Assembly (NCBI GenBank): GCA_964487565.1
Contig: CAZARN010000001.1
Coordinates: 93,536 to 157,535 of the forward strand
Origin: an uncultured Clostridium sp.
Lineage (GTDB): Bacteria; Bacillota; Clostridia; Christensenellales; CAG-138
Length of the DNA: 64,000 bases
Reading direction: 5' to 3'
The notes under the pieces are model-generated. The model was not told the origin of the DNA. It made no database searches and saw nothing but the letters and a program-made list of their open reading frames with translations. Positions 16,880-30,169 of this stretch are shown in pieces (within the stretch, counting starts at the first letter, position 1; every line of letters begins with the position of its first letter). The position numbers and the translations under genes are program-made.

Positions 16880-17241
16880 CGGCCGTCCCCGCGCGCAAGG
16901 CAATGCGCCGTCCGGTCGGGAACGTCCCGTTGCAACTCCTCTGTGCCGCCTGCCGCGTAGATGGCGGTACGCTAGGTGAACGAAACGGTTTGAGAAAGGC
17001 TCCCTCATTGAGGGAGCCTTAAAAATGCAGCTCTAACGCGCAGGCAAGCGACGCGCGCAGGCCTGATATTCATATCACATGTTAAATATTGTTATTTTTC
17101 AATTTACACAATTGACACATATATATGCAAAAACGGTGGTATAATAGCGCATAAACGGCAGAAAACCATGCAATAACAGTTGAAGGGACAACATATAATT
17201 GTACCGATATACGAAAGCAATATGCTTCGAATCGATAAATG

Positions 17242-17459
17242 AAAAGCGCCCCCCTGAGGGAGGCGCTTTCTGTGCGTATATCGGGTTCCCCAACGGGGAG
17301 TTTGAATTACGCGCGAACCTTCTTGACGGTCACGACGGCGGCGGCGACGAGCGCGAGAGCGATCATCACGAAGCCAACCACGGTGGTGGCGTCACCGGTC
17401 TGCGGGGGCTCGACGGTGGGGTTGGTGACGGTGACATAACCGGCGGGGTACACGAGGGT
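17242..17459. repeat. Outer inverted repeat, left copy (3' end of gene A plus its terminator)
   Basis: This 218-bp segment is identical, apart from one silent GGT/GGC difference, to the reverse complement of 20759..20976. It encodes TLVYPAGYVTVTNPTVEPPQTGDATTVVGFVMIALALVAAAVVTVKKVRA. Confidence 0.85.
17245..17267. terminator. Terminator hairpin downstream of surface-protein gene A, forming part of the outer inverted repeat
   Basis: AGCGCCCCCCTGAGGGAGGCGCT is flanked by A and T tracts. It mirrors the terminator after gene B. Confidence 0.5.
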
Positions 17460-18431
17460 CTCAACGACCTCGTCGATGGTGCCAAAGTACTTCACGAAGT
17501 GAGCCTTGGTCATGGCGTTGCTGCCGTCATACTGGAAGCCAAGAAGCGCGAGGAAGTTATCGAACACGGCCTTGATGGCTTCGTACCTGCCGGTGGTGTC
17601 GCTGACGCCCCAGGCTTCAGTATCGTCGACACGGAAGATGTAGCCGCCGTTGGAAGCGGTGGAACGGGTGACATAATAAGTGCCGTCGCCTTTGCCGCCG
17701 TTGGCAACAGTCAGTTTGATCGCGCTGCCGGCGTCATCGTTCACATAGCCGTCCTTGACGGGGAACACAACAGTGTTCTTGCCATCGAAGATGGAGAAGG
17801 TGCCTTCGGTTGCGGCATCAACACCATTTGCGGTAACGGTGAAGGACTTGGTTCCCTTTGCGTTGTAAGCAACGAAGGTGTCCCCTTCCCACACATTGTA
17901 GTAACCGACGGACGCCTTGACGGTGGCATCCTTGCCGCCGGTGGTGCCCTGGCCTACAAACTCGAACTTGTACTCAAAGCCTTCGCTGGCAGTGTCGAGC
18001 GTGGTGCTCCAGGACTTGGCATCAACAACAACGTTCTTGGTGGTGCCGGCCTCGGAACCATCAGACAGCTTGGTGATATAGGTGGAGACCTTATCGATCT
18101 GGATGTAATCGGTCGAAACCTTTACCTTGAGGCCGCGGGCTGCGAGAAGCTTTACGTTGGCAGCGCTCAGATCGGCCTCGGCGGGGATGCTGACGACGAC
18201 CATGAAGTGCACGGGGGTGCCCTTCACGAGGGGATAGGTAGCGGTGAGCTCCTGATAGAGGCTGCCGAGGACGGCAGTGTTCTCTTTGGTCTCAAGGCCG
18301 TAGAGCTTGAAGGAAATAGCAGTAGCGGGGTCCTCATCAACCTTGATCGGATCCCAACCGGCTGCCATGGTGGGGATGGCGATGGCAAGCGCCATGGCCA
18401 GAGCCAGAACGAGTGCAAACAGTTTCTTCAT
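17307..18431 (-). CDS. Cell-wall-anchored surface protein, paralog A, with a signal peptide and a C-terminal (S/P)PXTG sorting signal (PPQTG)
   Basis: The 374-aa product has the signal peptide MKKLFALVLALAMALAIAIPTMAAGW. Its C-terminus is PPQTGD followed by a hydrophobic segment and a KKVRA tail. The mature region is about 50% identical to paralog B. The track ORF extends upstream to 18509 through an unlikely TTG/ATG extension. The ATG at 18431 matches the start of paralog B. Confidence 0.7.
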   Translation of the reverse strand: MKKLFALVLALAMALAIAIPTMAAGWDPIKVDEDPATAISFKLYGLETKENTAVLGSLYQELTATYPLVKGTPVHFMVVVSIPAEADLSAANVKLLAARGLKVKVSTDYIQIDKVSTYITKLSDGSEAGTTKNVVVDAKSWSTTLDTASEGFEYKFEFVGQGTTGGKDATVKASVGYYNVWEGDTFVAYNAKGTKSFTVTANGVDAATEGTFSIFDGKNTVVFPVKDGYVNDDAGSAIKLTVANGGKGDGTYYVTRSTASNGGYIFRVDDTEAWGVSDTTGRYEAIKAVFDNFLALLGFQYDGSNAMTKAHFVKYFGTIDEVVETLVYPAGYVTVTNPTVEPPQTGDATTVVGFVMIALALVAAAVVTVKKVRA

Positions 18432-18439
18432 CTCAGAAA
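18345..18439. repeat. Inner inverted repeat, left copy (5' end of gene A)
   Basis: This 95-bp segment is identical to the reverse complement of 19815..19909. It covers 8 nt of 5'UTR (TTTCTGAG), the ATG and codons 1–29 (signal peptide ... WDPI). Confidence 0.85.
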
Positions 18440-18543
18440 CCATGCTGCATAAGTATAAATTATATGCCGCCCTGAAAAGGACAGCATTTTTTGGTACGGG
18501 GGTTTGCATCGCGCTTGCTCACATGAAGCCGACAGTGCGGCGC

Positions 18544-19626
18544 TCATCCGCCGCCAGGCCCTGAACCGATATATGTGTTGAGGACTGCGGCCGCCTGCGC
18601 GCGTTTTGCTTCGGTCAGATGGGTGTATATCGCGAGCGTCATCTTCACATCCGCGTGCCTCATGAACGCCTGCGCGCTCTTTATGTCCACGCCCGCATCA
18701 TAAAGCATGGTGCAGTATGTGTGCCGCAGCATATGCGGCGTTATGCTGCCGATGCGCCCCGCGTCCGCGCTCTGACGGATGTGCTTCATCAGGCACGTCC
18801 ACGCGCACACGAACGCGCTGTATGTCATGAGCCCGCCGTCCGCGCCCGGGCATATCCATTCCGAGCGTGAACACGCCTTCTGCTGCGCAAGCGCGCCGAG
18901 AAGCACGGCCGGTATCGGCACGCGGCGCGAGCCCGCGCGGGTCTTGGGCGTTTTGAGCTCCGGCGTATTCTTTGCGAAGGAAACGGCGCGGCGCACGGCA
19001 AGCTCCGAAGCCTCGAAATCGATATCCTCCCACGAAAGCGCAAGCGTTTCGCCCCGGCGAAGTCCGCAGTAAAGCATCAGCATGGAGGCGAGCCACAGCC
19101 TTTGCCCCCGCGCGGCGGTGAACGCCTCCTGCTCATACGCAGAAAGCGCGCGGCGCGGCTCCCGCGCCGCGCCCGCCGCTTCCACGCGGGCGAAAGGATC
19201 GCCCGTCATGAGCCCCTCGTCATTCGCAAAGCCGATTATCTCCCTCACGACGGCCTTGATATCGCGCAGCGTCGTCGCCGCGTATCCCTCGCGCGAAAGC
19301 GCGCAGAGCATATCGCGCAGGTCGTTCGGACGGAGCGCGTCGAGCGCGGTCGAGCCAAGCGCGGGCAGGATGTGTCTGCCGATGAGGGAAGCGTATTTCT
19401 TTTTCGTGTTTGCGGCAAGCGCGGTCTCGCGCTGCGCGAACCATGCTTCCTCGGCCTGCGCGAAGGTCGGCCGCGGTTCCGTTTGGGCTGACGCCGGAGG
19501 GCGCAAACCGTCACATTCGGGGTATTTCCCGAGAAATATGTCGCGGGTTTTGCGCGCGCGGCGCACAAGGTCGAGCCGGCGGCGGTCTTTCCACGCCGCG
19601 TGGCGCGTTTTCAACATAAGCTCCAT
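18544..19626 (-). CDS. Tyrosine-type site-specific recombinase/integrase
   Basis: The 360-aa product has a C-terminal catalytic domain with R...HxxR...Y residues (HMLRHTYCTMLYDAGVDIKSAQAFMRHADVKMTLAIYTHL). It has a GGAAGGAG Shine-Dalgarno sequence. Confidence 0.85.
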   Translation of the reverse strand: MELMLKTRHAAWKDRRRLDLVRRARKTRDIFLGKYPECDGLRPPASAQTEPRPTFAQAEEAWFAQRETALAANTKKKYASLIGRHILPALGSTALDALRPNDLRDMLCALSREGYAATTLRDIKAVVREIIGFANDEGLMTGDPFARVEAAGAAREPRRALSAYEQEAFTAARGQRLWLASMLMLYCGLRRGETLALSWEDIDFEASELAVRRAVSFAKNTPELKTPKTRAGSRRVPIPAVLLGALAQQKACSRSEWICPGADGGLMTYSAFVCAWTCLMKHIRQSADAGRIGSITPHMLRHTYCTMLYDAGVDIKSAQAFMRHADVKMTLAIYTHLTEAKRAQAAAVLNTYIGSGPGGG

Positions 19627-19693
19627 TTATGGAACTCCTTCCTCAAAGCTAAAAGTGCTTCGAAATATTTATTAAGAATTCGTAATAAAAGCG

Positions 19694-19722
19694 TTGACAA
19701 CGGTAATATTAGATGATAATAT
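19694..19722 (+). promoter_or_regulatory. Sigma-A promoter inside the candidate invertible segment, currently oriented toward gene B
   Basis: TTGACA (19694..19699), a 17-nt spacer and TAATAT (19717..19722) are followed by a 5'UTR that contains a small hairpin at 19771..19787 and the AAAGGAG Shine-Dalgarno sequence at 19805..19811. Confidence 0.45.
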
Positions 19723-19814
19723 GATGTCGTGCAATACGGGATAGTACCCAACAGCGGCATTTATTGCCTGCCGGGGTAACGCCCCGGCGACACACACAAA
19801 TTTGAAAGGAGTTT

Positions 19815-19909
19815 TTTCTGAGATGAAGAAACTGTTTGCACTCGTTCTGGCTCTGGCCATGGCGCTTGCCATCGCCATCCCCACCATGGCAGCCGGTTGG
19901 GATCCGATC
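19815..19909. repeat. Inner inverted repeat, right copy (5' end of gene B)
   Basis: This is the reverse complement of 18345..18439 (95 bp, identical). The repeat begins 1 nt after the divergence point of the upstream sequence. Confidence 0.85.
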
Positions 19910-20911
19910 CTGCCGTCCACCACCCCCACTGAGGCCATCACCTTCAAACTTATGGGCCTTCAGACTGAAAAGAACACCGCAGTCCTCGGCGGCCTCTATG
20001 AAGAGCTTACCGCTACTTATCCCCTCGTAAAGGGTACTGCTGTTCACTTCGTGGTTTATGTAAATGTACCCGCCGAAGCGAAGCTCAGCGCCGCCAACAA
20101 GTCCCTTATCGCGAACAGGTATCTCAACCTTAACGTTGCCTGCGATAACATCACTCTTGACAGCGTTACCACCTGGACCAACGGCGTCGAAGGCGCAAAG
20201 GTCAACCTTGCCGGTGCGAAGAGCTTCACCACCGCTTGGGGTACCGGTTGCTACGGTCAGGAATACAAGCTTGAGTTCTGGGGCAGCGGCGTCACCGGCG
20301 GTAAGGATTCCACCGTCAAGGCTTCCCTCGGTTACTACAATGCCTGGGAAAGCACCACTTTCAAAGCTTACAACGCTGACGGCGATCTCGCCTTCACCGT
20401 TACCACCGATAATCTTGACAAGGCTGTTGCGACCTATTTTGAGATCAAGGATGCGGACGGCAACGTCATGAAATTCCCGGTTGCCAAGGGCGTTATCGAT
20501 ACCAGCAAGGTCATCACCCTCAAAGTTGGTTCTAATACCTATGACGTGACCAGGTCCACCGTTTCCGGTATTGCGTTCAAGCTTGCCGAGAAGGTTCTTG
20601 ACGAGAAGAGCACCGGCGACGATGCCAAGACCTATGCAGCGCTGAAGAAAGTCTTTGACAACTACTTCGCAATGCTGGGCTTCACCTATGACGGAGCCAA
20701 CGCCATGACCGCCGAGCACTTCACCAAGTACTTCGGCACCATCGACGAGGTCGTCAATACCCTCGTGTACCCCGCCGGCTATGTCACCGTCACCAACCCC
20801 ACCGTCGAGCCCCCGCAGACCGGTGACGCCACCACCGTGGTTGGCTTCGTGATGATCGCTCTCGCGCTCGTCGCCGCCGCCGTCGTGACCGTCAAGAAGG
20901 TTCGCGCGTAA
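19823..20911 (+). CDS. Cell-wall-anchored surface protein, paralog B, with the same signal peptide and PPQTG sorting signal as paralog A
   Basis: The 362-aa product has its ATG at 19823, preceded by an AAAGGAG Shine-Dalgarno sequence. Its N-terminal 29 aa and C-terminal 50 aa are identical to paralog A. The centre is divergent. Confidence 0.75.
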   Translation: MKKLFALVLALAMALAIAIPTMAAGWDPILPSTTPTEAITFKLMGLQTEKNTAVLGGLYEELTATYPLVKGTAVHFVVYVNVPAEAKLSAANKSLIANRYLNLNVACDNITLDSVTTWTNGVEGAKVNLAGAKSFTTAWGTGCYGQEYKLEFWGSGVTGGKDSTVKASLGYYNAWESTTFKAYNADGDLAFTVTTDNLDKAVATYFEIKDADGNVMKFPVAKGVIDTSKVITLKVGSNTYDVTRSTVSGIAFKLAEKVLDEKSTGDDAKTYAALKKVFDNYFAMLGFTYDGANAMTAEHFTKYFGTIDEVVNTLVYPAGYVTVTNPTVEPPQTGDATTVVGFVMIALALVAAAVVTVKKVRA

Positions 20912-20976
20912 TTCAAACTCCCCGTTGGGGAACCCGATATACGCACAGAAAGCGCCTCCCTCAGGGGGGCGCTTTT
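20759..20976. repeat. Outer inverted repeat, right copy (3' end of gene B plus its terminator)
   Basis: This is the reverse complement of 17242..17459. Confidence 0.85.
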
Positions 20977-20980
20977 TTTG
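20950..20980 (+). terminator. Rho-independent terminator after gene B
   Basis: The hairpin AGCGCCTCCCTCAGGGGGGCGCT is followed by TTTTTTT. Confidence 0.6.
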
Positions 20981-21124
20981 CATCCGCGGGAATATATGTA
21001 TTATATTGTATATTATTGAACAATGCCATGACGCATAAAGCGTGAAACGTTACCTATCGTTGCAAATTCCCGACCGATATTGCAACGCCTGAAATTGTAG
21101 ATTATATATAGCGGACCTGTTTTA

Positions 21125-21153
21125 TTGAACAGGGTGGCCTGGCGTGATAAAAT
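21125..21153 (+). promoter_or_regulatory. Sigma-A promoter candidate for iorAB-ptb
   Basis: TTGAAC, a 17-nt spacer and TAAAAT lie about 60 nt upstream of iorA. Confidence 0.35.
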
Positions 21154-21211
21154 CAAAATGAATTAAAGTAATCCGCCGGTCAATTCCGGCCATAGTGGAG
21201 GCGCATTTCTT

Positions 21212-23008
21212 ATGGAAAGAGAAATCATGAGCGGCAATGAAGCCGTGGCGCGCGGCGTGTATGAGGCGGGCTGCAATGTTGCGGCGGCTTATCCCGGCAC
21301 ACCGAGTACGGAGATACTCGAGAACATAGGAGAAAAATATAAGGACGATATATGGTGCACCTGGGCGTGCAACGAAAAAACCGCCGTGGAGATCGCGTCA
21401 GGCGCATCGATCGGCGGGGCGAGGGCGTTTGCCGCGATGAAGCATGTGGGCATGAACGTTGCCGCGGATCCCATATTCACAATGGGTTATATGGGCGTGA
21501 CGGGCGGGTTCGTGTTTGTTTCTGCGGATGATCCCGGGTGTCATTCCTCGCAGAATGAGCAGGATAACAGACTTTATGCGCCCCATGCGAAGATCGGCAT
21601 GATGGAGCCTTCCGATTCGCAGGAATGCAAGGATTTCACCAAGGCGGCGTTCGAGCTTTCGGAGCGTTTCGACACGCTGATGATGCTGCGCCTGACGACG
21701 CGCGTTTGCCACTCAAAGAGCATCGTCACCCTTGAGGAGCGTCAGCAGACGCCGGTCAGGAAGTATGTGCGCGACCCGAAAAAATTCGCCATGCTGCCCG
21801 CGCATTCCCGTCCGCGGCATATATATCGCGAGGAAATGCTGGCCAAAATGGAGGAGTATGCAAACGACTGTCCGTTTAACCGCGTGGAGAGCGCCTCGGG
21901 CGAAAGTGACATCGGCGTCGTGACCTCCGGCATATCGTATCAACACGCAAGGGAAGTTTTCGGCACAAGCGTGCACTATCTCAAGCTTGGCCTCACCTAT
22001 CCCCTGCCGCGCAAGCTCATTAAGGACTTTTGCAGCAAGCACAAGACCATATATGTTATAGAGGAAAACGACCCGTATCTTGAAAACGCCGTGCGCGAGG
22101 AAGGGTTCACAAACTGCATCGGCAAGGCGAGGCTCCCCATCTGCGGCGAGCTCAACGCCCAGATAATCCGCGATGCGTTTCTGCCGGGCACCGGCGCTGA
22201 AGGCTACGCCGCCTGCGGCGTTACGCCGCCGCCGCGTCCGCCGGTGCTTTGCGCAGGCTGCCCGCACAGGGGCTTCTTCTATTCGCTCGGCAAGTTCATC
22301 GGCAAGCCGAACGGCATCGTGCCCTGCGGCGATATAGGCTGCTATACGCTCGGCATCAACGCGCCGCTCAACGGGCTTGACACCACGATCTGCATGGGCA
22401 GCGGCATATCCTCGATAATCGGCATGGCGAAGGCGCTGGAGCTTCAGGGCGACGGCAGGAAGCCTCTCGGCTGCCTTGGGGATTCGACCTTCTTCCACAG
22501 CGGGCTTGTTTCCCTGATCGACGTCGTCAACAACGAGGCGAACGTGATCGCCTGCATTCTCGACAATTCCATAACCGCCATGACCGGTCATCAGGAAAAC
22601 CCCGGCACGGCGAAAAACCTCATGGGCAATCCTTCGCCCGTGATCGATATCGAGTCGCTGGTGCTTGCGACGGGCATTGCGCCTGAGCGCGTGCGCGTGG
22701 TCGATCCGATCGATGTCGCCGCGGTACAGTCCGCGGTGCAGGCCGGTCTTGATGTGAAGGGGCCGTTTGTGATAATCACCAAGCGTCCGTGCGTGCTTAT
22801 CAAGGAAGTCGCGCGCGCGAACGCCGGCAAGTATTGCAGGATCGATCCCGACAAATGCCGCGGCTGCAGGATGTGCATGAAGATATCGTGTCCTGCCATA
22901 GCGTTCAGCGAGGGAAAAGCGCGCATCATCGACCCGGCGTCCTGCACGGCATGCGGGCTGTGCATGGAAATGTGCAAATTCGGTGCGATCGAAAGGATCG
23001 GTGAGTGA
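21212..23008 (+). CDS. iorA: Indolepyruvate ferredoxin oxidoreductase subunit alpha (IorA)
   Basis: The 598-aa product has a TPP-dependent 2-oxoacid:ferredoxin oxidoreductase alpha domain and C-terminal 2x[4Fe-4S] motifs (CRGCRMCMKISCP...CTACGLCMEMCKFGAI). Confidence 0.85.
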   Translation: MEREIMSGNEAVARGVYEAGCNVAAAYPGTPSTEILENIGEKYKDDIWCTWACNEKTAVEIASGASIGGARAFAAMKHVGMNVAADPIFTMGYMGVTGGFVFVSADDPGCHSSQNEQDNRLYAPHAKIGMMEPSDSQECKDFTKAAFELSERFDTLMMLRLTTRVCHSKSIVTLEERQQTPVRKYVRDPKKFAMLPAHSRPRHIYREEMLAKMEEYANDCPFNRVESASGESDIGVVTSGISYQHAREVFGTSVHYLKLGLTYPLPRKLIKDFCSKHKTIYVIEENDPYLENAVREEGFTNCIGKARLPICGELNAQIIRDAFLPGTGAEGYAACGVTPPPRPPVLCAGCPHRGFFYSLGKFIGKPNGIVPCGDIGCYTLGINAPLNGLDTTICMGSGISSIIGMAKALELQGDGRKPLGCLGDSTFFHSGLVSLIDVVNNEANVIACILDNSITAMTGHQENPGTAKNLMGNPSPVIDIESLVLATGIAPERVRVVDPIDVAAVQSAVQAGLDVKGPFVIITKRPCVLIKEVARANAGKYCRIDPDKCRGCRMCMKISCPAIAFSEGKARIIDPASCTACGLCMEMCKFGAIERIGE

Positions 23009-28898: not shown

Positions 28899-30169
28899 AT
28901 ATCCTCCTCAGGGTCTTCCTCAGGAACGGGCCAAACCCTTATGCCGAGGCGCACCACGCGGCGGTTTTGGAGTTTTTTCACCGTTATTGTGAGGTTTTTA
29001 TACTCGAATATGTCACCGACCTTCGGATAATCGCCGAGCATCTCTATCGCCCAGCCGCCGAGGGTGGCGTTGTCGTCGTCAAAGTCGCGGTCGTCGATGT
29101 CGAGCGCGTCGAAAAAGTCCTCGATGCGCATGTCGCCGTCCGCCTCATAGGTATCCTCGCCCGTCTGCACGAATTCCTCGACCACCTCGTCCGTCTCATC
29201 CCATATGTCCCCGACGAGCTGTTCAAGCACATCCTCCATGGTGAGGCAGCCCATCGTGCCGCCGTATTCGTCGGTCACGATGACCATGTGGCATTTGCGT
29301 TTTTTCATCTCGCGCAGCACATCGTCGAGCGGCATCGTCTTATGCACGAAGTTTACGGGCATGAGCAGCTTCTGTATGTCAAAATCCTTTTCGCCGAGGG
29401 CAAGCGCCTTGAAGAAATGATTGAGATGCAGTATGCCGATTATATTGTCTATCGTATCCTCATAAACAGGGATACGCGAATATGGCGAGGAATTGACCGT
29501 TGCAAGTATTTCATCAAAGCTGTCCTCGACGTCGATCGAAAGCATGTCCACGCGCGGTGTGATTATCTCATACGCAAGCACGCCGTCGAAATCGAGCGCG
29601 CTTTGCAGAAGCTCCGCGCGGTCCTCGTCGATCACGCCCTCGTCCTCGACCGTGTCGATTATGGTTTCAAGATCCTCCTCGGTTATGGCGGGCTTGGCAG
29701 CGTCGCTCTTGTCGCTCCAGAGGCGGTCGATACAATGCAAAAGCTTCTGCATGAGCCATACAATGGGGAAGGTGACGATCATCAGTATCCACAGCGGCAC
29801 GGCGGCAAGCTTTGTGAAGCCAAACGCCGTCTGAACGGCCACGATCTTCGGTATTATCTCGCCGAAGGTTATGATGAGCACCGTCATTATGCCCGTCGCA
29901 GCCCACGCGCCGTCGTCGCCCAGAAGCGTGATGGCGATGACCGTCGCCACGGATGAGGCGGCGATGTTCACGAGGTTGTTGCCGATGAGTATGGTTATGA
30001 GCGCGTCGTCGTATTTTTCGTATATTTTCCACGCGAGCGACGCGAGTCTGTTTTTCCCGTCCTCCGCAGCGCGCTTGAGGCGAAGTTCGTTCACCGAGGC
30101 GTAAGCGATCTCCGAGCCGGAGAAAAACGCCGAGAACACGATGAGAACGGCGATCAGTGCGTAGTTCAT
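28895..30169 (-). CDS. Hemolysin/CNNM family protein (DUF21 TM domain + CBS pair + CorC_HlyC domain)
   Basis: The 424-aa product has an N-terminal DUF21 region with four TM segments, tandem CBS domains and a C-terminal transporter-associated domain. Confidence 0.8.
   Translation of the reverse strand: MNYALIAVLIVFSAFFSGSEIAYASVNELRLKRAAEDGKNRLASLAWKIYEKYDDALITILIGNNLVNIAASSVATVIAITLLGDDGAWAATGIMTVLIITFGEIIPKIVAVQTAFGFTKLAAVPLWILMIVTFPIVWLMQKLLHCIDRLWSDKSDAAKPAITEEDLETIIDTVEDEGVIDEDRAELLQSALDFDGVLAYEIITPRVDMLSIDVEDSFDEILATVNSSPYSRIPVYEDTIDNIIGILHLNHFFKALALGEKDFDIQKLLMPVNFVHKTMPLDDVLREMKKRKCHMVIVTDEYGGTMGCLTMEDVLEQLVGDIWDETDEVVEEFVQTGEDTYEADGDMRIEDFFDALDIDDRDFDDDNATLGGWAIEMLGDYPKVGDIFEYKNLTITVKKLQNRRVVRLGIRVWPVPEEDPEEDI

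Follow-up and report, generated by a model that had tools for sequence, protein, structure and literature searches.

The window, by which we mean the whole 64-kb stretch of DNA that was analysed, carries two inverted paralogous genes with a tyrosine recombinase gene between them. Gene A (17307-18431, minus strand) encodes a 374-aa putative surface protein with a predicted signal peptide and sortase-type anchor, and gene B (19823-20911, plus strand) encodes a 362-aa paralog whose product is identical to P0001. The 360-aa recombinase (18544-19626, minus strand) matches PF00589 (E = 3.7e-24) and also has N-terminal SAM-like and central domains. A promoter-like site, TTGACA-17-TAATAT with the TG of an extended -10 (19694-19722, plus strand; 10/12 consensus positions), faces gene B and is followed by a 5´ leader with three hairpins and an AAGGAG ribosome-binding site (RBS) (19723-19822, plus strand), which is conserved before family members in other species.

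The recombinase gene, promoter-like site, leader and RBS are all bracketed by a pair of perfect inverted repeats of 95 nt, at 18345-18439 (inner arm A) and 19815-19909 (inner arm B), each comprising the 8 nt before the ATG and the first 29 codons. The repeat is conserved at 95/95 positions in three contigs from related strains (L027, L030 and L032). Inside the inner arms lies an imperfect dyad, CATGGCG-N8-CGCCATC (18375-18396 and 19858-19879), which occurs without mismatch only in these two arms, with a one-mismatch copy at 29930-29951, and is a plausible core site for a tyrosine recombinase. This is the anatomy of an invertible promoter, and we infer that the recombinase acts at the inner repeat and that the locus works as a two-state switch, in which inversion between the inner arms would shift the promoter, leader and RBS from gene B to gene A. 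In the present orientation, gene A is without promoter, leader and RBS, and a terminator-like hairpin (18464-18487, minus strand), located between the recombinase stop codon and the inner repeat and within the invertible segment, separates it from the recombinase gene; gene A appears to be the silent copy and gene B the expressed copy. The promoter-like site points toward the right-flank gene in all informative contigs; short Logan contigs, which end ~30 nt inside the inner repeat or, in L003, at its far end, are uninformative on orientation.

The presumed silent copy is doubly insulated, by the hairpin at 18464-18487 just inside the inner repeat and by the placement of the RBS (19805-19814) inside the invertible segment, so that the unlinked gene has neither promoter, leader nor RBS. 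The left and right AT-rich flanks each contain an inward-facing promoter-like element, antisense to the 3´ end of gene A and of gene B, respectively: TGGTATAAT at 17137-17145 (plus strand), read from the sequence, and ATGGCA-18-TATAAT at 21029-21000 (minus strand), found in a scan. These elements could be chance matches. The invertible core (18440-19814) itself is variable, with 78% identity to L027 and L032 in the recombinase and 88% in the promoter and leader, against 94-98% for the surface-protein genes beside it and 100% for the inner repeats in the same strains. There thus seem to be two coexisting, diverged types of core, as if the core had been exchanged with the inner repeats as homology arms.

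The ~100-nt leader (19723-19822, plus strand) is also conserved upstream of family genes in L004, L005, L006, L007, L011, L013-L015, L019 and L024-L026, where its elements follow in the order GTGCAAACGGGAnAGTACCCAACA, a GGCA..TGCC hairpin, a CCGGGG..CCCCGG hairpin, ACAC and the RBS. An AU-to-CG covariation is seen in a leader stem in 4 of 13 sequences. The leader had no match in Rfam, and an Rfam search of 17000-21300 returned a single sub-threshold chance match only; the leader may be an undescribed 5´UTR RNA element.

The two surface proteins belong to a family with more than 260 homologs in uncultured Clostridia, in which the signal peptide and sorting signal are near-invariant in protein sequence and the middle is 35-50% identical. 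Both products begin with a signal-peptide-like N-terminus and end with PPQTGD, 21 hydrophobic residues and KKVRA. Matches to the anchor models, which are LPXTG/NPXTG models, were weak and below threshold (TIGR01167, 15.2-15.3 against a cut-off of 15.9; NF033846, 15.9-16.0 against a cut-off of 23.5), and two homologs have been named LPXTG-motif cell wall-anchored proteins by JGI. On the basis of these features, we consider both products to carry a putative sortase-type anchor signal. A structural model of the gene B product has two beta-sandwich domains and a helical piece (pLDDT 80). Searching the PDB with this fold gave only generic beta-sandwich, pilin- or adhesin-like matches with TM-scores of about 0.2-0.25, which do not allow a function to be assigned.

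A second, outer pair of inverted repeats lies at the 3´ ends of the two genes. Arm A consists of the last 50 codons and stop codon of gene A (17307-17459, minus strand), 152/153 identical to 20759-20911, and its 65-nt 3´UTR (17242-17306, minus strand), 65/65 identical to 20912-20976. Arm B (20759-20976, plus strand) correspondingly comprises the last 50 codons and stop codon of gene B and a 65-nt 3´UTR with the terminator. In total, 217 of 218 bases are identical between 17242-17459 and the reverse complement of 20759-20976, according to both pairwise alignment and a repeat finder, and the sole mismatch (17439/20779) is a synonymous difference in a glycine codon, GGT in gene A and GGC in gene B. 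The coding part of each arm encompasses a linker, the PPQTGD sorting motif, the hydrophobic segment and the KKVRA tail, and the 3´UTR is predicted to fold into a small CCCC-GUU-GGGG hairpin and a strong GC hairpin with a U-run after it, the latter being an intrinsic terminator (z = -4.7 and -5.0). The distance between the outer arms is 3299 nt. These results bear out the description given in the sequence-only reading, which had reported 50 codons, a stop codon and a 3´UTR of about 65 nt shared with one GGT/GGC difference, a core of about 3.3 kb between the arms and extensive divergence upstream; the middles of the two proteins are about 51% identical.

The alignment that had been proposed for defining the exact borders gave different results at the two ends of the tract. 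The distal border is sharp and falls at the fourth T of the terminator T-run, whereas the proximal border is graded, with identities of 0.58, 0.70, 0.82, 0.92 and 1.0 in 50-nt windows. Homology extends beyond the 218 nt to 17585/20633, giving 344 nt in all with 90% overall identity; in this lower-identity continuation (17460-17585, minus strand, and 20633-20758, plus strand), arm A is ~74% identical to arm B and the border of the identity tract varies with strain. In the alignment of the two genes (1201 columns, 69% identity), the longest perfect run measures 197 nt, and 218 nt if one mismatch is allowed. When the differences were permuted in 10,000 trials, the maxima were only 38 and 60 nt, respectively. 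The identity tract is not due to chance. Within the 64-kb window, there were no further copies of the inner or outer repeat and no other gene ending in a comparable sorting signal; the sharing of this 3´ sequence with unlinked genes, which had been named as a finding that would weaken the case, was thus not seen there.

We compared the locus with those of related strains. L027 (from ENA) is collinear with window positions 20790-7295 at 96.4% identity, L028 spans gene A and the 3´ end of the recombinase gene, and L029 (from JGI) runs over the gene B position and right flank. Three further contigs of ~3.2-3.3 kb, L030, L031 and L032, have the order gene, recombinase, gene and end in or near the outer repeat. 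Across 17439-17484, the number of bases at which arm A departs from arm B is five in the window and L032 (T; TG.G; T), one in L028 and L030, and zero in L027. The L027 arm B, represented by the first 158 nt of the 344-nt tail frame, is B-type over 17439-17484 too. Since both L027 arms are B-type where the arms of other strains differ, the change was non-reciprocal. Across strains, the identity tracts have a common 3´ end and variable 5´ stops, with the border at three places, which is the footprint that conversion tracts would be expected to leave, in a small sample of five A arms, two complete B arms and the 158-nt L027 fragment. The classical test of concerted evolution, in which the two arms of a genome should be more alike than one arm is across genomes, has little power here, as the window alone supplies both complete arms and conservation of the arms among strains is as high as 98-100%.

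Other parts of the locus also vary independently. One core type is found in the window and L030 and a second in L027 and L032, the two being only ~78% identical in nucleotide sequence; the arm haplotypes do not track these recombinase-core types, which points to reshuffling. At the gene B position, L029 carries a third allele (40-1146; P0002). Before position 20639 it is a patchwork of A-type and B-type bases, and from there on it has 98.7% identity to the window. The lineage has at least five variable-middle alleles with 51-66% amino-acid identity, two of them in L031. Together, the mismatch between cores and arms, the third allele and the number of middles show the locus to be a mosaic of pieces that are delimited by the repeats and have separate histories.

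We next considered how much of the 3´ identity could be ascribed to selection on the protein. Where the A and B products have the same amino acid, both genes use one and the same codon at 48/49 positions within the last 50 codons and at 90/147 (0.61) in the middle. Against 16 genes of other species, the baseline for identical codons is 0.61-0.84 in the tail and 0.45-0.68 in the middle. The 65-nt 3´UTR, identical at all 65 positions between the arms, is only 46-65% identical to that of the closest other species. The sequences of the terminator stems vary between species while pairing is kept, indicating that the sequence is not fixed by selection. Paralogs in other genomes, whether in tandem or on separate contigs, are 72-93% identical over the last 153 nt of the CDS and 39-89% over the 3´UTR, and never reach 99-100%; the family thus appears to show partial 3´ homogenisation elsewhere, but nothing like that seen here. 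Because of the excess of identical codons in the tail over both the middle and the cross-species baseline, the variability of the 3´UTR between species and the lower similarity of paralogs elsewhere, we consider that protein-level constraint on the tail, while real and family-wide, is insufficient to account for the nucleotide identity of genes A and B.

The sequence encoding the sorting signal is itself unusually conserved at the nucleotide level across species (last 32-50 codons, L004-L025 compared with 20759-20911). In the last 99 nt, family genes of different species have as many as 95-96 positions in common, and the pooled fraction of identical codons is about 0.75 in the tail compared with 0.56 in the middle. 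This raised codon identity suggests that some nucleotide-level constraint or biased composition contributes; the possible causes are codon or composition bias, nucleotide-level constraint and recombination between species. The 3´UTRs of family members from different species (L004-L025) also share TAATT/AAAC, a GGG-loop-CCC mini-hairpin and GCACA before otherwise unrelated terminators, and the first hairpin of the 5´ leader has a GGG-loop-CCC-AACA shape similar to this mini-hairpin. RNAalifold gave weak consensus structures for the 3´UTRs and for the 5´ leaders, which we attribute to imperfect alignments.

With regard to distribution, all recombinase homologs of at least 74% identity lie within this same gene/recombinase/gene module. 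Homologs of 42% identity or less were considered as switches and rejected, as they are mobile-element integrases; the module therefore appears to be restricted to a narrow lineage. A scan of genome contigs with the family alignment found a recombinase homolog beside a family gene at 0 of 23 loci. In two Clostridia MAGs (L009, 625-3817, and L012, 4540-7809), compared with window positions 19823-23008, a single family gene lies beside the same IOR (indolepyruvate oxidoreductase-like) genes in divergent orientation, with neither recombinase nor partner gene, and in L014 the distance from the VTC/DUF4956 genes to a family gene downstream of them is about 3 kb. This setting appears to be ancestral, with a gene orientation that would have changed during evolution. 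Another reading, of the module as transposon-like with the 218-nt arms as its terminal inverted repeats, was set aside because the repeats are gene tails with terminators and because single family genes share the IOR-gene neighbourhood in related genomes.

Two nested inverted-repeat pairs, of 95 nt and of 218 nt (344 nt with the graded zone), surround one recombinase gene, and multi-repeat invertons served by a single tyrosine recombinase do exist (PMC7096588). The outer repeat might accordingly be taken as a second programmed site of the same enzyme, in a nested, multi-site inverton like that of pneumococcal hsdS; we find this very unlikely. The inner and outer repeats have no common 8-mer, their best ungapped match (16/22) was reached by 3 of 100 shuffles, and the core dyad is absent from the outer arms, whereas the longer pneumococcal repeats require IR1-like sequences for recombinase-driven inversion (PMC7096588). 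Inverting the outer segment in silico left the ORFs and the pairing of promoter and gene unchanged except for one synonymous base. Since the arms are the same and the promoter and genes flip together, the anatomy of the locus suggests that an outer inversion would yield no new protein or expression state and would give selection nothing to act on. Thus, neither a core site in each repeat pair nor a distinct outcome for each pair, as expected of a multi-site inverton, was found. The proximal border, moreover, is graded and strain-dependent, and the flank arrangement is identical in the window, L027 and L029, the only three contigs with flanks; the outer-recombinant arrangement was not seen among them. 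In metagenome contigs, an exact 29-nt 3´UTR pattern had no match and a scan with the recombinase alignment returned one distant integrase only, and exact-protein look-ups gave short contigs ending at repeats. Several assemblies do break at the outer repeat, though we rejected contig ends at repeats as a sign of inversion, given that any repeat longer than the assembly k-mer breaks contigs regardless; the ends of two of three Logan contigs lie 30 nt into the inner repeat, which is where breaks would fall at k = 31. Such breaks, and the probable origin of the window from a metagenome-assembled contig, might instead suggest that the outer repeat is an artefact of a collapsed or chimeric contig. 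Identical arm sequences recur in the independent assemblies L027, L028 and L029, arguing against an artefact, and the unique flanks of the two arms differ on both sides. With arm A joined to the left flank in L027 and arm B to the right flank in L029, in the same sequence and from independent samples, this reading is practically refuted.

The identity could also have been inherited. A fairly recent inverted duplication of the whole gene, from 8 nt before the ATG through the terminator, would have produced ends that never diverged, and the middles would later have been replaced by imported cassettes through crossovers in the conserved ends. The sharp distal border exactly at the terminator end and the start of the inner repeat just before the ATG fit such a duplicated unit, and cassette import is in line with the third allele at the B position of L029 within a near-identical flank, the five or more alleles of the lineage and a recombinase core with just 78% identity between strains, compared with 94-98% for the neighbouring genes. 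However, inheritance leaves unexplained why one 3´UTR is common to all population alleles unless homogenisation also occurs, and does not fit the non-reciprocal change in L027, both of whose arms are B-type where arm A of the window and L032 is A-type. We regard this process as a possible but rather unlikely sole source of the identity; it overlaps with homogenisation by recombination, and the two are compatible. No recombination would be needed if purifying selection acted on a 3´ element at the nucleotide level, for instance one for RNA stability or regulation or for protein binding; this reading could draw on the raised tail codon identity across species (0.61-0.84 against 0.45-0.68) and on the recurrence of the GGG-loop-CCC and GCACA motif in family 3´UTRs of many species. 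Yet the 65-nt UTR is variable across species (46-65% identical), with stems that vary and stay paired, so the element tolerates change, and paralogs within other genomes differ in their 3´ regions. Selection at that level cannot yield 65/65 bases and 48/49 codons between copies with saturated middles, and as the only cause it seems highly improbable.

Collectively, these comparisons lead us to favour, as the probable explanation, a common 3´ module kept near-identical by homologous recombination, chiefly gene conversion, rather than a second recombinase target. The module would comprise the linker, PPQTG sorting signal, membrane segment, basic tail, stop codon and 3´UTR with terminator. The over-long identity tract, the identity at synonymous and non-coding positions and the non-reciprocal change with lineage-variable end-points, the last in a small sample, are the marks expected of gene conversion. 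Non-reciprocal conversion between the two arms would be the main process, with a contribution from the exchange of variable-middle cassettes between strains, for which the conserved ends could serve as homology handles. This recombination would act atop the strong, family-wide protein-level constraint on the sorting signal, and the homogenising agent is presumably general homologous recombination. As to direction, the arms may have been converted toward the B-type, or the five A-type bases may have come in from another allele. The working switch would be the inner 95-nt repeat, which would shift the promoter, leader and RBS between the genes. Low-frequency crossover can occur between inverted repeats some 200 nt long with a spacing of 3.3 kb, so an occasional silent flip of the 3.3-kb core is expected; a rare RecA-type crossover between the 218-nt repeats is physically possible and would be a phenotypically silent by-product. 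On this view, the locus represents an ordinary, well-documented kind of concerted evolution, set within a lineage-restricted two-gene switch. The claim of the sequence-only reading that recombination maintains the mosaic is therefore supported, on the synonymous and 3´UTR identity and the non-reciprocal, strain-variable borders, as is its argument that selection on the sorting signal alone is insufficient (48/49 against 90/147 codons; 3´UTR 65/65 against 46-65% across species). Its suggestion of a second inversion axis is not supported, as there is no core-like sequence in the outer arms, and nor is the assignment to multi-site invertons, given that these arms have nothing resembling the inner repeat or its dyad and that an outer flip would bring neither a new protein nor a new expression state.

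We have also entertained the more speculative, and doubtful, idea that, in this Clostridia-wide family, the ultra-conserved 5´ module (leader and signal peptide) and 3´ module (sorting signal and UTR) are dedicated recombination handles, share an undescribed RNA element, or both. If the former were true, the handles, among them the outer repeat, would permit variable surface-protein cassettes to move among paralogs, among strains and perhaps across species. If the latter were true, the 3´ module and the 5´ leader would both carry a GGG-loop-CCC followed by an ACA-rich stretch, recognised by a common regulator.

Several known phase-variable loci resemble this one in part. Surface-lipoprotein switches of Mycoplasma, such as vsa of M. 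pulmonis with the recombinase HvsR and vpma of M. agalactiae and vsp of M. bovis with Xer1, combine a locus-encoded tyrosine recombinase, a single promoter or expression site and variable gene bodies with highly conserved 5´ ends, at which a silent gene becomes linked to the expression site by inversion. The locus described here likewise has its own recombinase, one promoter, conserved 5´ ends and variable bodies, but has two genes only, belongs to a Clostridia-type Gram-positive organism, and carries a sortase-type anchor signal in place of a lipoprotein signal. It also has a long near-identical 3´ module, including the terminator, which is not known to be part of the Mycoplasma recombination sites. 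At the sap locus of Campylobacter fetus, a promoter is inverted between opposed sapA homologs with conserved 5´ regions, in a RecA-dependent process that includes nested inversions. Common to both loci are an invertible promoter between inverted surface-protein paralogs, long conserved ends suited to homologous recombination and variable middles. In C. fetus, however, the conserved 5´ end is what recombines and no dedicated recombinase is known to take part, whereas here a tyrosine recombinase is paired with a short perfect 5´ repeat, and the long homology is at the 3´ end, where crossover would be without phenotype. We consider the Mycoplasma vsa, vpma and vsp systems and C. fetus sap to be the closest analogues, and by this comparison the locus would belong to that kind, in a Clostridia-type organism.

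Two other systems are similar in more limited respects. In the pneumococcal cod/ivr inverton of type I restriction-modification hsdS genes, with the recombinase PsrA/CreX, recombinase-driven inversion of the long repeats depends on IR1-like sequences, and low-level recombinase-independent inversion of these repeats occurs too (PMC7096588); loci related to this inverton have been surveyed (PMC7672463). The Streptococcus pneumoniae locus resembles ours in having one tyrosine recombinase and pairs of inverted repeats of very different lengths inside paralogs. There, the repeats lie between functional half-domains, the long repeats have IR1-like cores and each inversion makes a new specificity protein, whereas here the outer pair is at the extreme 3´ end, contains no sequence like the inner repeat, and its inversion would change nothing. 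The Clostridioides difficile cwpV and flgB switches with RecV (PMC2784873, PMC7446863) are likewise cases of clostridial cell-surface phase variation by a tyrosine recombinase, with short inverted repeats upstream of or at the gene 5´ end. The C. difficile switches turn a single gene on or off with a recombinase encoded elsewhere, in contrast to the presumed choice here between two paralogs with homogenised ends by the locus's own recombinase.

The analysis sets the working part of the locus, namely the 95-nt inner repeat, recombinase, promoter and leader, which most likely choose between two surface proteins, apart from a by-product, the homogenised 3´ tails. A search tool that finds invertons by their inverted repeats would report a second inverton at the outer pair, and such reports, together with assembler breaks at the same place, could be misread as programmed inversion. 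The mosaic pattern points to an exchange of surface-protein variants within this lineage of uncultured Clostridia. A two-gene switch for sortase-type surface proteins with its own recombinase, apparently confined to a narrow lineage, would be a modest addition to the known phase-variation systems.
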